Shown here in pieces: positions 4,136 to 13,642 of a DNA stretch of 64,000 bases. The position numbers and the translations under genes are program-made. The DNA comes from a virus (taxonomy: Duplodnaviria; Caudoviricetes). The DNA lies in the IMG/VR virus record IMGVR_UViG_3300020049_010822, positions 1 through 64,000 of that record, one strand, 5' to 3'. The notes below the pieces were generated by a model that was not told where the DNA came from, searched no databases, and saw only the letters and a list, made by a program, of their open reading frames with translations. The first letter of the stretch is position 1; each line of letters opens with the position of its first letter.

Positions 4136-4267
4136 GGCACTATAGCTCAGCGGTAGAGCACCTTATTATAGATCTGTTCAGCAGTATGTAATAGGAGGAA
4201 TGAACGGTTTCAGCACTATAGGTGACTGTCTCAATTCGATACACTGGTTCGAATCCAGTTAGTGCCG
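4136..4267 (+). tRNA. aberrant tRNA-like RNA (132 nt) with expanded anticodon/variable region; possible UCA loop
   Basis: acceptor GGCACTA/TAGTGCC, D-arm GCTC-AGCGGTA-GAGC and T-arm ACTGG-TTCGAAT-CCAGT are canonical, but ~60 extra nt lie between D and T arms. Confidence 0.7.
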
Positions 4268-5170: not shown

Positions 5171-5572
5171 ATGAAAAAAATCATTTTTATCCTGCTTGGA
5201 TTACTCCTCGCAGCCATTGCCCTTCCCGCTCAAATTATCGAGCTTAAAATCGATTCCACAAACATTGCTAAAATGCAAATCTGTAACACCTTCGGATGTG
5301 AGACTGTGGACTTAGGTGAATGGATTACCGTGTATAATGAAAGTCAGACATCCCCAGCTGGGGATTATAGAACTGCCCTCATTAGATCACAAGACACAGA
5401 TGAAAATGCTTTACCTTTATGGTGGGCATATATCGTCATAGTACAAGACGAACAGGAAAACGTGGAGTTCCACTTTAACAACATGGTGATCTATCAAGGA
5501 TCGCGTTTTATCATGAACTCTATCTCGCGTCCAGTCCAATGGGATATGATGTGGCAGAGATGTCAATTTTAG
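5171..5572 (+). CDS. putative secreted protein
   Basis: AACATG start at 5171, MKKIIFILLG...PAQ signal peptide. Confidence 0.65.
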   Translation: MKKIIFILLGLLLAAIALPAQIIELKIDSTNIAKMQICNTFGCETVDLGEWITVYNESQTSPAGDYRTALIRSQDTDENALPLWWAYIVIVQDEQENVEFHFNNMVIYQGSRFIMNSISRPVQWDMMWQRCQF

Positions 5573-7562: not shown

Positions 7563-7808
7563 ATGAAAAAACTTCCACCAGAAGTACAGGAAGCCATCAT
7601 CTTGGTAGGTAAACTAGACCCAAAAGATTATCCTTGGAAATACAAAGCACTAAATAATTTGTGTCAATGTACAAGTAAGGAGGCTTACATGTCTAACTTT
7701 ATTACATCTCCAAATGGATCTCTGGCTAAAGCTGTAAATATGTTTGTGTGGGCAAATACACTACAAGGATTTGATTTTTGGTATAAAATCCAAAGAAATT
7801 TACCATGA
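7563..7808 (+). CDS. hypothetical protein
   Basis: 81 aa, C-terminal FVWANTLQGFDFW motif; ATGA overlap. Confidence 0.6.
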   Translation: MKKLPPEVQEAIILVGKLDPKDYPWKYKALNNLCQCTSKEAYMSNFITSPNGSLAKAVNMFVWANTLQGFDFWYKIQRNLP

Positions 7809-8074
7809 GGAAACTCGAATTAGGTGAAAAGCTTGCCGTTATTTTCATACTATGTATGGGAGTATACGCTACTTACGTACATTTTGGGACTCACATGTAT
7901 ACTGCGGCTTTAATAATGTGGAGCTGGGTAAAAGAAGATCTCCGTTTTTCTCGTGCTGGACAGCATTTTTTATGTGCGGGAATTTCTATAGCTGTTATTA
8001 TGATAATCATCGAGGTTATAGAATTCCGATTAAAACGTGAAAAAAAGGAATCTGACGATCTCCTAGACGATTAG
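7805..8074 (+). CDS. membrane protein
   Basis: hydrophobic segments. Confidence 0.6.
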   Translation: MRKLELGEKLAVIFILCMGVYATYVHFGTHMYTAALIMWSWVKEDLRFSRAGQHFLCAGISIAVIMIIIEVIEFRLKREKKESDDLLDD

Positions 8075-8082
8075 ATACAAGA

Positions 8083-8415
8083 AATCCCTAGCCGACTTTA
8101 ACGGCTACCAAGGATAAGGGTCCCTACCCTGTTTTATATTACTCTTGCCTGACAGCAGTGCGTTAATTCCTCATTTAGCAGGACCATCCCTTTATCGTTA
8201 GAGACTCAACGACACGTCTTGCACGTACCTAGAGTGTTTGACCGTAATACAACGGCCCTCTGCTAAATTCACTGTCAGCGTAATAGTAATACCTTTCGAC
8301 ACTATCGGAGAAAACCATCCGATTAAGATGAAATCCGACTTCTAGGCCACCTCGTATTAGATTTTCAATCTACTGCTTGGCCGATACAGGAGTCACTCTT
8401 CCTGCAATGTCTATC
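8083..8415 (-). ncRNA. candidate ~330-nt structured antisense RNA
   Basis: no ORF >=60 aa; nested helices (plus coordinates) 8137/8285, 8149/8272, 8173/8260, 8305/8334, 8345/8378, 8387/8400, 8089/8102; lies directly downstream of a minus-strand host-type promoter. Confidence 0.65.
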
Positions 8416-8420
8416 TAACA

Positions 8421-8451
8421 CAAAGATAACACATTTCAAGACGAAATACAA
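8421..8451 (-). promoter_or_regulatory. Bacteroidota primary-sigma promoter (-33 TTG / -7 TAnnTTTG)
   Basis: minus strand TTG (8451-8449), 20-nt spacer, TATCTTTG (8428-8421). Confidence 0.7.
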
Positions 8452-8477
8452 GTCTTTGTTAAATTATTTTTCAAAAA

Positions 8478-8912
8478 ATGGAAAAAAAACCCACAATCCG
8501 TCGCTGGGTAGCTGAACATCGGGACAATCAAATTTTCGGCGTAGACTACGATGCTAACCTATTACAAAGAAGATTGGTAATATTTCTGCACGATTTCGAA
8601 TTCGATACTAAAACAGAACGAGATAAAGCAGAACTTGTAGGTGAAGAACTGCGGTATATTAAGGGTAGCCCTAATGTGCGCGAAGAACAGCACCCCGAAT
8701 TGAGAAAAGCGTTGTATGACGCGCGTAATGTTAAATCTAATGAATGGACGGGAGTACTTCTTGAGTATTCTGAGATCCTATGCCAGGCTGGAAAGGGGTT
8801 AAAGCCCCGGCTCGTAAATTATCGCCTTAATAAAAAGGCACATCTGATAACCTACATCCGTCTCTTAGAAGTTGCCCATCACTATGGGTACGAGATTGAT
8901 GAAAATGAATAA
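8478..8912 (+). CDS. hypothetical protein
   Basis: 144-aa ORF. Confidence 0.65.
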   Translation: MEKKPTIRRWVAEHRDNQIFGVDYDANLLQRRLVIFLHDFEFDTKTERDKAELVGEELRYIKGSPNVREEQHPELRKALYDARNVKSNEWTGVLLEYSEILCQAGKGLKPRLVNYRLNKKAHLITYIRLLEVAHHYGYEIDENE

Positions 8913-10238: not shown

Positions 10239-11246
10239 ATGACACTTCAAGAGTTTCGGAATCACATGAATCCGCGCTTTTCCTACATGGAGAGCGCGAT
10301 AGATTCTATCTACTTTGCAATTCAAAAGAAACAGCACTGCTTGCTGTTCGGACCTGGTGGCCACGCTAAATCCACTATTGTGGAAGAAGCCATCAAACTA
10401 TTTATCGGAGAGGCTGCGTTCTATAAGGACGTATTCATCGCAAACTGCGCTGAGGACATGGACAGCACTCCCATTATGGGTTATGATGATATCCCTTCAC
10501 TTAAAGCTGGTAAGCTCAAAAAAGTGTTGGATGATACCGTCTTCCTGAAAAACGATTACGCCATATTGGAAGAAGGCCTAGATGCCCCTCCAATGCTAAT
10601 CAACGCACTCAAAGACCCGCTTATGCGCGGTTATGTATGTATCAATGGCACTTGCATGCCAAATCGCCTTAAATCTTTGTTTATCTGCACGAACGTAGAC
10701 CCAGTAAAATGGGCGGGCAAAGACAATTCACGCTTAGCGCTTCTCCAACGCTTCACCTACTCTATTGAGGTGAAATGGCCATCTTACGATTACAAACATT
10801 GGGAAGGCTTTTTGAAAAAGAGGAGCATTCATAATCCCATTATTGCAAAGTTTGCCGAGATAGCCCATATTGAAAAGTGGGAAATCTCTCCTCGCTCTGT
10901 TGAAAAGATGTCTGGACTCTATACAGAGTTCGGAATTCAAGCCCTCGAAAACTTTGAACGGATACCAGCAAATGTCCTTCAAAAGTGGAAAGACTATGAA
11001 AAGAACATTCCGTTCATAAAAGAGATTTGCAATCTTCAGCTGAGGGTGGAAGCCATGCGCACCATGCCTCTGCATGAACGTGGAAATGAGATGATACGCA
11101 TAACGAAAATTGCCCGCTCAATCAAGGGTATTCCTGTGGATGGCGGCTTCTCTGAGCAACTCAAACAATGTCTCGTGGATGCGAAAGCCATCGCTAATGC
11201 GGCAGTGGAAGCCGCAGACCAAGTTACAAAAACCGTAGTAATCTAG
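10239..11246 (+). CDS. MoxR/RavA-like AAA+ ATPase
   Basis: GPGGHAKS Walker A, ILEE Walker B, CTN sensor, ALLQRF Arg finger; adjacent VWA gene. Confidence 0.8.
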   Translation: MTLQEFRNHMNPRFSYMESAIDSIYFAIQKKQHCLLFGPGGHAKSTIVEEAIKLFIGEAAFYKDVFIANCAEDMDSTPIMGYDDIPSLKAGKLKKVLDDTVFLKNDYAILEEGLDAPPMLINALKDPLMRGYVCINGTCMPNRLKSLFICTNVDPVKWAGKDNSRLALLQRFTYSIEVKWPSYDYKHWEGFLKKRSIHNPIIAKFAEIAHIEKWEISPRSVEKMSGLYTEFGIQALENFERIPANVLQKWKDYEKNIPFIKEICNLQLRVEAMRTMPLHERGNEMIRITKIARSIKGIPVDGGFSEQLKQCLVDAKAIANAAVEAADQVTKTVVI

Positions 11247-12531: not shown

Positions 12532-12832
12532 TTGTTTCCCATCTTGTAACAAGTTAAGACCAGCGGTGCGATTGCCTGCGGGTTTGTTCGCACTGTCAAA
12601 TTCTATACCTTATAAAAATCAATACATCCAGATCGAAGCTAAACAGGTGCTATCAACCCACTTTAAAGCTAAAAAAAACGTTGTGTATCTTATTAAAGCT
12701 GAACCATCAGCTTATAGATATAATAATGTTTCTGGGGGTATATTAGCTCTCGAAAAACCACATGAAAAAAAATTCTTGGGGCTTACGTCCCAAAACTCAC
12801 ATATTTTCTCACTCACTCAACACAACAAAGCA

Positions 12833-13642
12833 ATGAAATTATTGCAAATCGCTTTTCCTCAAATGCAAGGAGCCACAAAAGAAACATTTGGCCTGAGCGC
12901 TGAATCATCCTTTACTCCTGAAACAGCGTATGATCTTTGTCTGCGGCAAAGCAACGGGGACACACTGACAGAGCCTGAACAAGCTTTAGCGTCGTCTGAC
13001 GCATGGCTGCAGATCTTCAGAAATGTGCAACGTGTTCAATTGAACACCGTACTTCCAAACTTACCGTTTCCTGCCGCCACGATCGAAATGGTTGCTGCTA
13101 TTCCTCAAGACCGATTGAACGACAGTGTTGAATACGCCGAAGCAGTTCTCTCTGGGAATCCTGCTGAAGCCGGTTCTATCTCCGCATTGGGCGTGGAAGG
13201 ACTGACAGAATGGCTCGGTGCTGCCGACCTTACGGCTTACCAGACCCCGGCTGCTCCAGAAGATGTAAAGGCGGCTATCGAAAACGCCATTGAAGCTCCA
13301 GCGGAAGAAGTTCCAGCCGAAACGACTGTTGCTGCAGAAGAAGCCCCTGCTCAAGAAGAAGTCCCTGTCGAAGAAACAACTCAAACAGAAAACCTGCCTG
13401 CACCCCCAATCAACGCTACAACTTCTGTAGTGGTACCCGGAGGTAAACTGTACACAGCGGCATCCACGGTTGTAGGCTTGCGCGATCAAGTGCAAGCAAA
13501 CATTGCTGCTCAACAAGAAACTCTCCAGCAAATTGACAAGGTGATTATTGCGGGATTTCTTAATAACGCGGCTGAATTGGATGCCGTAGCTGGGTTGCCT
13601 GCCACCACTGAAGCAACAGAAACACTCGCTGTAGAGGCGTAG
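12833..13642 (+). CDS. acidic Ala/Glu-rich hypothetical protein (frame open upstream to 12476)
   Basis: likely start MKLLQIAFPQ at 12833 after A/C-rich leader; followed by terminator. Confidence 0.65.
   Translation: MKLLQIAFPQMQGATKETFGLSAESSFTPETAYDLCLRQSNGDTLTEPEQALASSDAWLQIFRNVQRVQLNTVLPNLPFPAATIEMVAAIPQDRLNDSVEYAEAVLSGNPAEAGSISALGVEGLTEWLGAADLTAYQTPAAPEDVKAAIENAIEAPAEEVPAETTVAAEEAPAQEEVPVEETTQTENLPAPPINATTSVVVPGGKLYTAASTVVGLRDQVQANIAAQQETLQQIDKVIIAGFLNNAAELDAVAGLPATTEATETLAVEA

Follow-up and report, generated by a model that had tools for sequence, protein, structure and literature searches.

The RNA gene and its surroundings

The stretch of DNA analysed here, called the window, comprises 64,000 nt of a 99,851-bp virus record. 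Between two of its plus-strand ORFs, 7805-8074 and 8478-8912, lies a gap (8075-8477) in which no ORF longer than 42 aa is found under either translation table 11 or table 4 (TGA=Trp), and both flanking ORFs are complete, the first ending with its stop codon at 8072-8074 and the second beginning with its start codon at 8478. The segment 8083-8451 holds a stand-alone gene for a folded RNA of ~330-375 nt, encoded on the minus strand, and its locus is single-copy in the record. A preliminary description, made from the letters alone, had placed here an independent, highly structured non-coding RNA running opposite to all flanking genes; the non-coding tract, the promoter, the 5' hairpins, the nested stems and the 3' hairpins that it listed were each found again where it had located them, and its central claim is borne out by family-wide covariation, by an asymmetry between the strands and by the position of the promoter. 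In comparison with shuffles, the fold of the window's own sequence has a z of -2.5 on the minus strand and of -4.4 on the plus strand; the decisive support for the RNA is its conservation with covariation in relatives. We regard it as very likely that this is a real minus-strand RNA gene belonging to a new family.

The flanking proteins have almost no relatives overall. No relatives of the products of 7805-8074, 8478-8912 and 10239-11246 were found in the viral contigs or GenBank phages searched, and the relatives that do exist are P0002, with a neighbour protein of 87% identity, and P0003. The latter, a public gene call of 202 aa, is a relative of ORF 8478-8912 with an identity of only 60%, and its N-terminal 58 residues are the translation of a homologous RNA gene on the wrong strand; the peptide FDTIGEN within them corresponds to UUCGACACUAUCGGAGAAAAC, positions 8294-8314 of the window. 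The N-terminal part of P0003 is a spurious extension of the ORF through the RNA gene. Since this extension reads FDTIGEN, conservation of the gap's DNA reaches to a phage in which the neighbouring protein has an identity of only 60%.

A family of RNA genes in phages of Bacteroidota

Entry into the family was gained with a degenerate coding-style pattern on the FDTIGEN stretch, the matches of which were mostly due to chance, followed by blastn, and together they exposed the core TTYGACACTATCGGAGAAAAC ... AATCCGACTTCTAG. Scans with anchored patterns next yielded 21 IMG/VR loci, 48 JGI/TARA metagenome loci and, with helix 1 left free, 88 IMG/VR loci. The family amounts to 137 viral and metagenome loci in 28 clusters (80% identity over at least 150 nt), in which the window is a singleton. 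The member contigs include some from freshwater, marine and rumen samples (e.g., the sources of L121, L134 and L015). The terminase TerL of the main clade resembles the TerL of Bacteroides crAss-like, Flavobacterium and Cellulophaga phages.

The RNA had not been recognised as tmRNA, RNase P, 6S or an intron, and it matches no known family in the catalogues consulted. With Rfam 15 (4227 models, including those for GOLLD, ROOL, 6S, tmRNA, RNase P, group I and II introns, HEARO, riboswitches and small ribozymes) no covariance model matches at the RNA gene: the scan of the whole window at the gathering threshold returned only two tRNA matches, both elsewhere, the scan of 7900-8650 at E values up to 10 returned a single chance match to a snoRNA (14 bits), and 19 other member loci gave only tRNAs. 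Furthermore, blastn of four different members against 50,697 GenBank phage records gave no match, the core pattern was not matched exactly in the genomes of GTDB, taken at one per species, model R2 (described below) found nothing significant in the whole genomes of the cultured relatives crAss001, phi14:2, Lbo-JY46 and phi4:1, and no description of the RNA was found in the literature. The family is uncatalogued, and its carriers are uncultured Bacteroidota phages (crAss-like and kin), well over a hundred in number.

Specific classes were also considered one by one. A minimal RNase P, to which the likeness of AGAAGUC and of ACAGAAC..GACUUAGC to CR-I and CR-V pointed, was rejected, as the covarying helices use these bases differently and no RNase P model matches. 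A group I intron is at odds with a strand opposite to the flanking ORFs, with an own promoter and terminator, with flanking ORFs that are complete and with the lack of a match to RF00028. A 6S RNA consists of one long irregular helix with a central bubble resembling an open promoter, an architecture unlike the junction, rod and hairpin seen here, and neither the 6S nor the 6S-Flavo model matches. The ncRNA of UG27, for example, is described as forming three long stem-loops between the gene of its reverse transcriptase and a partner gene (PMC9226505); for such RNAs associated with reverse transcriptases (retron msr/msd, DRT2/3/9, UG27) the expected setting is missing here, as PF00078 has no match in the 99.9-kb genome, with positive controls, and no large ORF is conserved beside the RNA.

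The four-way junction

Domain 1 (8298-8411, minus strand) is a four-way junction, found in the MFE fold and in the covariance models R1 and R2, in which helix H1 closes H2, H3 and H4. H1 (8411-8407/8302-8298) is all-paired as GACAU/GUGUC and is followed by H2 (8406-8400/8391-8385); H3 (8382-8378/8349-8345) encloses a GAAA-capped hairpin (8372-8367/8363-8358), and beyond the junction strand UAGAA (8344-8340) H4 (8339-8334/8309-8304) carries a distal hairpin (8331-8326/8320-8315). The covariance model mis-assigned H1 and H2 in the row of the window, and the coordinates given for these two helices are those of the MFE fold. Three 5' hairpin domains, one of them with a GAAA loop, had been noticed beforehand; in the unconstrained MFE fold they appear as three hairpins closed by a fourth helix.

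Model R1 was built from alignment A4, of 17 hand-checked sequences, and R2 from 52 diverse hits. Both recover every member tested, and the window is found at E 4e-5 with R1 and 3e-8 with R2. In alignment A5 (45 rows) 99.0% of the cells are paired, 14 of 23 pairs show compensatory changes and the covariation score is 0.445 (shuffled 0.151), while in slid controls 23-47% are paired; in alignment A7 (63 distinct rows) the corresponding values are 94.6%, 17 of 23 and 0.473 (shuffled 0.138), with 28-44% in slid controls, all of these being figures from model-based alignments, which lean towards the modelled structure. The observed score was reached by none of 500 shuffles in either alignment; the collection of homologues and the search for covariation that had been recommended as a check (137 loci, 17 of 23 domain 1 pairs compensatory in A7) both speak for the RNA.

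H1, H2 and H3 covary freely, and H1 alone occurs as GACAC/GUGUC, GUUAC/GUAAC, GAAGC/GCUUC and UAUCC/GGAUA. In contrast to these three helices, the junction strands and one arm are nearly invariant across the family, as AGAAGUYGGAU ... UUUCUCCGAUAG. The most conserved core of the window (8304-8343) consists of AGAAGUCGGAU (8343-8333) and UUUUCUCCGAUAG (8314-8302) around H4, which are the search anchors common to the 137 loci. Because H4 and the junction served as anchors, their near-invariance is partly imposed; additional invariant positions (UU, C and A) fall outside the search pattern. The 22.7-kb contig L206 holds two diverged copies of domain 1, at 5399-5512 (-) and 12815-12912 (-), and in the first of these, found only by the model, an A-U pair of H4 is replaced by G-C, which means that the family extends past the anchored patterns.

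Pairing of the H3 loop (UGAGG) with the H4 loop (CCUCA) in a pseudoknot was discarded, as there is no covariation and UGAGG stays constant while its partner varies, and scans of the main clade for tertiary pairs by mutual information and by helices were too noisy for any call. In the distal loop of H4 (A4 columns 68-73 and 93-98; L011 compared with L139) the variants UUGUGAG..AAAUUGG and UAGUAUG..AAAAGAG always swap together and switch even between otherwise near-identical RNAs, with no simple Watson-Crick register that fits them; this co-switching reflects either the exchange of a module by recombination or a contact in the tertiary structure.

About 25 nearly invariant nucleotides in junction strands flanked by covarying helices form the conservation pattern of ribozymes and riboswitch aptamers, and the junction could accordingly be read as the catalytic core of a ribozyme or as the ligand pocket of a small-molecule aptamer, for instance a sponge for a host signalling nucleotide. 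We consider this improbable: no ribozyme or riboswitch of Rfam matches even at E values up to 10, no conserved context of a cleavage site is seen, the window has no regulated gene downstream and, as said, part of the invariance comes from the search.

The branched rod and the 3' end

A GAAA linker (8297-8294) leads from the junction into domain 2 (8137-8297 including the linker), which in the MFE fold is a long branched rod. Its nested helices are P5 (UAUUACU/AGUAAUA, 8291-8285/8143-8137), P6 (8278-8271/8156-8149), P7 (AUUUAGCA/UGCUAAAU, 8268-8261/8180-8173) and P8 (8258-8251/8188-8181), and they enclose an inner hairpin (8229-8223/8217-8211). The long nested domain reported earlier is recognised in this fold, where UAUUACU/AGUAAUA, CUGACAGU/GCUGUCAG and AUUUAGCA/UGCUAAAU are followed by 3' hairpins. 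In the nearest relatives, L242 and L186, P5 (AACUACA/UGUAGUU) and P7 (GUUACAAU/AUUGUAAC) are both kept as helices with wholly different sequences, and helices of the window's domain 2 are maintained by compensatory change in comparison with L242; the blocks ACAGUG, GGUACGUG, CUCUAACGAUAAAG and GCACUGCUGU of domain 2 are common to these two loci and the window. The equivalents of P5 and P6 covary in the main clade.

Domain 3 comprises the hairpin UAGCCG/CGGCUA (8107-8102/8094-8089), which was flagged as terminator-like and the stem of which covaries in comparison with L242, and an outer stem AUCCU/GGGAU (8115-8111/8088-8084) with an AGGGAU motif that recurs across lineages; a hairpin followed by AAGGGRAU is present in most of them. 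A 3' tail of uncertain extent (8040-8083) contains UUCUUGUAUCUAAUCG, common to cluster 4, a weak hairpin (8063-8047) and seven U (8046-8040), and this candidate tail overlaps the stop and last codons of ORF 7805-8074. The sequence common to the window and cluster 4 extends, in the alignment with L242 and L186, to ~8068. On this sequence the RNA of the window could end either at the hairpin 8107-8089 or at the weak hairpin and U7 of 8063-8040; most of the lineage representatives inspected (e.g., L162, L147 and L134) have, on the RNA strand, a 3' end made of a hairpin and a U-tract.

Strand of the RNA

In the model-based alignments, 960 of 970 cells pair in the minus orientation, against 853 on the complement, and in A7 the corresponding proportions are 94.6% and 84.7%, with 140 G-U pairs. 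The RNAalifold energy of the main clade is -40.95 on the minus strand and -32.94 on the plus strand, and every one-sided change in this clade is, in the minus orientation, an exchange of C and U opposite G, which would be a C-A mismatch if the plus strand were read. The better z of the window's plus strand arises because the minus strand, rich in G and U, folds well even when shuffled. An RNA from the plus strand, which this z had suggested, was rejected on the asymmetry between G-U and C-A, on the strand of the promoter and terminator and on the RNAalifold energies. A plus-strand core resembling a group I intron (P3 GUUUU/AAAAC, P7 UCGGA/UCCGA) was likewise dropped once the strand was settled and the stand-alone context was seen.

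The same asymmetry bears on whether the element works as DNA. An ORF-free and hairpin-rich tract at the boundary of modules, often near terL, where pac sites lie, could be a DNA-level element (origin or pac site) with hairpins acting in the DNA, or could give rise to a replication-origin or primer RNA, but 110-140 G-U pairs turn into C-A mismatches if the other strand is read, and the object of selection is therefore a single RNA strand, not DNA in duplex or cruciform form. Moreover, the element is single-copy and no repeats or iterons are present. The GC-skew check proposed together with the idea of a replication-origin RNA lent this idea no support: cumulative skew, which follows the direction of transcription, has its maximum at ~38 kb, where the gene arms converge, and its minimum at ~96-97 kb, where they diverge, with no extreme at 8 kb. 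We consider an origin, primer or pac role extremely unlikely.

Promoter and 5' end

The sigma-A promoters of Bacteroidota (Bacteroides/Flavobacterium) have the consensus TTTG at -33 and TAnnTTTG at -7, with a spacing of ~19-21 nt. The predicted promoter of the RNA, cTTG-N20-TATCTTTG at 8451-8421 (-), fits this consensus, with a -33 element (C)TTG at 8449-8451 that stands 20 nt 5' of the -7 box TATCTTTG at 8421-8428. Its position predicts a start of the RNA near 8416-8413, in keeping with the host-type promoter and the start at ~8415 that had been proposed, and helix 1 begins at 8411. In 20 of the 28 clusters an exact TAnnTTTG is found on the RNA strand 5' of helix 1, within 160 nt upstream of the core, and a TTG ~20 nt further upstream recurs in most lineages; the counts of the box in controls are 3 for the same region on the other strand, 4 beyond the 3' end on the other strand and 1 in the RNA body. 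Where helix 1 is confidently placed, the box ends a few bases before it. The evidential weight of the promoter lies in this position, fixed in 20 of 28 lineages, and not in enrichment along the genome, where the pattern occurs about as often as in shuffles (11 matches vs. 7.7 +/- 2.8).

A near-identical promoter, TTG-N21-TATCTTTG, lies outside the window at 99225-99255 (-), where it heads the late minus-strand arm with ORFs directly after it, and for this reason the RNA may be timed with the middle or late genes and not with the early ones. At this second promoter an ATG stands 5 nt past the box, which would make the first gene (127 aa) near-leaderless. The view that the RNA is made by the host polymerase independently of the virion RNAP stands in one part, in that a host-type promoter is present; independence itself is a deduction from that promoter, and the late arm has a near-identical one.

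Genomic context and relation to terL

For 14 of the 28 clusters the flanks analysed include terL and, in all 14, the RNA gene is found on its 5' side at 2-7.6 kb. In 11 of these clusters the two genes are co-directional, with the RNA 2.7-7.6 kb upstream, and in the remaining three (clusters 0, 6 and 14, which form the largest clade with 64 loci) the RNA is inverted and no co-directional gene follows it. In this clade an ORF of ~90 aa, the promoter and the RNA make up an island, inverted and set between opposing operons, that has TATATTTG and CCTAC/GTAGG of its own. The ORF, conserved, acidic and without any Pfam or PHROG match (e.g., L121:3626-3898 (-)), shares the strand of the RNA and precedes it by 40-66 nt, only in clusters 0, 6 and 14, and is possibly a lineage-specific partner of the RNA. 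The phage of the window differs, with terL on the minus strand at 91.2-93.5 kb and an RNA gene that stands alone and inverted ~8 kb into the plus-strand arm.

The usual position would also fit a cis-acting leader of the late (terL) operon that is transcribed before the rest of the operon and modifies or gates the polymerase, by processive antitermination of the put or EAR type or by attenuation as in lambda 6S, with the inverted copy of the window being a displaced relic or acting via a different target. In 11 of 14 clusters the RNA indeed lies upstream of terL and in its orientation, it comes directly after a host-type promoter, and the late arms of the carrier phages are very long single-strand operons. 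Against such a leader, the window and clusters 0, 6 and 14 have nothing co-directional downstream, although 11 other clusters do, a setting that does not fit a riboswitch either; many members end in a hairpin and U-tract, in several a further TAnnTTTG box separates the RNA from the first ORF, and a length of 330-375 nt in three domains is far beyond the needs of known cis antiterminators. We judge a cis-acting leader to be rather unlikely.

The antisense orientation that had been reported for the locus is correct for the phage of the window, where the RNA opposes all its neighbours, but it does not extend to the family, as the RNA is intergenic and points the same way as the genes downstream in 11 of the 14 clusters for which terL is within reach, and antisense regulation is for this reason not the function of the family. 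In the window, the RNA might still act as a cis-antisense regulator of ORF 7805-8074 or ORF 8478-8912, by pairing with the mRNA or by transcriptional interference, since its 3' tail may reach into the last codons of the former and 26 nt separate its promoter from the start codon of the latter. This is very unlikely: the conserved body is intergenic, the homologues overlap no gene and are flanked by unrelated genes that differ between lineages, and the viral-contig collection contains no relatives of either flanking ORF.

Comparison with known RNAs

The closest parallels in kind are GOLLD (RF01998) and ROOL (RF03087), which, like the RNA described here, are stand-alone, promoter-driven, multi-domain phage RNAs with no partner protein alongside, and are sometimes found beside tRNA genes. 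In the present family tRNA genes occur within ~2 kb of the RNA in only 3 of 28 lineages (the window, L048 and L147; the scan covered 43 loci). There is no match to GOLLD or ROOL in sequence or structure, their length is roughly 580-800 nt against ~330-375 nt, and, unlike them, the RNA described here is restricted to Bacteroidota-type promoters. A separate Rfam tRNA match in the window, at 4136-4267 (+), is 132 nt long, scores 46.6 bits and is not called by ARAGORN.

In the crAss-like phage phi14:2, two abundant long non-coding RNAs have been reported from the g004-g006 intergenic region (bioRxiv 10.1101/2020.03.07.982082). These share with our RNA an origin in ORF-free tracts near the left genome end, and they are highly expressed; unlike it, they are sense transcripts that show up together with the early class. 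A search of their locus with R2, filters off, gave a best E of 0.14, elsewhere in the locus, and by this model search the phi14:2 RNAs are a different family. The source of both is a 1.7-kb tract (NC_021806 2905-4601, L251), all ORF annotations of which were withdrawn in 2020.

The lambda 6S RNA (the pR'-tR' leader) and HK022 put are short transcripts of the host polymerase that head the late operon upstream of the packaging genes, which is the usual position of this family; they act in cis and are small and simple, whereas the RNA described here has three domains, its own terminator and an inverted orientation in the window and the largest clade. The pRNA of phi29 (RF00044) is likewise phage-encoded, with a host-type promoter and a multi-helix junction, and acts in trans on the packaging machinery; its model does not match, the carriers of our RNA have a classical TerL terminase, and the intermolecular complementarity of loops is a feature of pRNA.

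Proposed function and significance

Taken together, we consider it likely that the locus is a self-contained gene for a trans-acting structured ncRNA of ~330-375 nt, made by the host polymerase and belonging to an uncatalogued family of Bacteroidota phages. The host sigma-A RNA polymerase would start on the minus strand at TTG-N20-TAnnTTTG, a few bases before the first helix, and the transcript would fold into the four-way junction, the long branched rod, in which the sequence is free and the helices are kept, and the 3' hairpin with AAGGGRAU, giving a stable and discrete RNA. That it would act in trans as a stand-alone molecule is suggested by a gene that is inverted with respect to both neighbours in the window and the largest clade, co-directional elsewhere, and often followed by a second promoter. 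The invariant junction would serve as a specific site of binding or activity, its most likely partner being a protein involved in transcription, translation or packaging, with the rod and the 3' hairpin supplying stability and architecture, and the usual home 5' of the terL operon, together with a promoter type that matches that of the late arm, suggests an action at a middle-to-late stage.

A role as a protein-binding platform working at the late stage is put forward only tentatively; it is a guess, because no protein is conserved next to the RNA gene across lineages. We think it unlikely, but conceivable, that the core of the four-way junction is an active site or ligand pocket, the RNA being then a new class of ribozyme or stand-alone aptamer, or an RNA cofactor of packaging or late transcription, made by the host polymerase at the late switch; if this were true, it could, for example, sequester an immune or signalling nucleotide of the host as an RNA sponge.

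In gut, freshwater and marine Bacteroidota the crAss-like phages belong to the most abundant viruses, and almost all of their biology has been deduced from proteins. The family described here adds to them a widespread RNA gene, absent from the catalogues, that is strongly supported by covariation and whose promoter, strand, core motif and usual position in the genome are defined. For annotation this means that ORFs should not be called through the gap, as the public call P0003 already does. As a new orphan RNA class of ~350 nt, the family has a compact conserved core that suits structure determination and the fishing of partners, and, because it habitually heads the terminase operon, a part in the late programme could be tested directly, given a cultured carrier.
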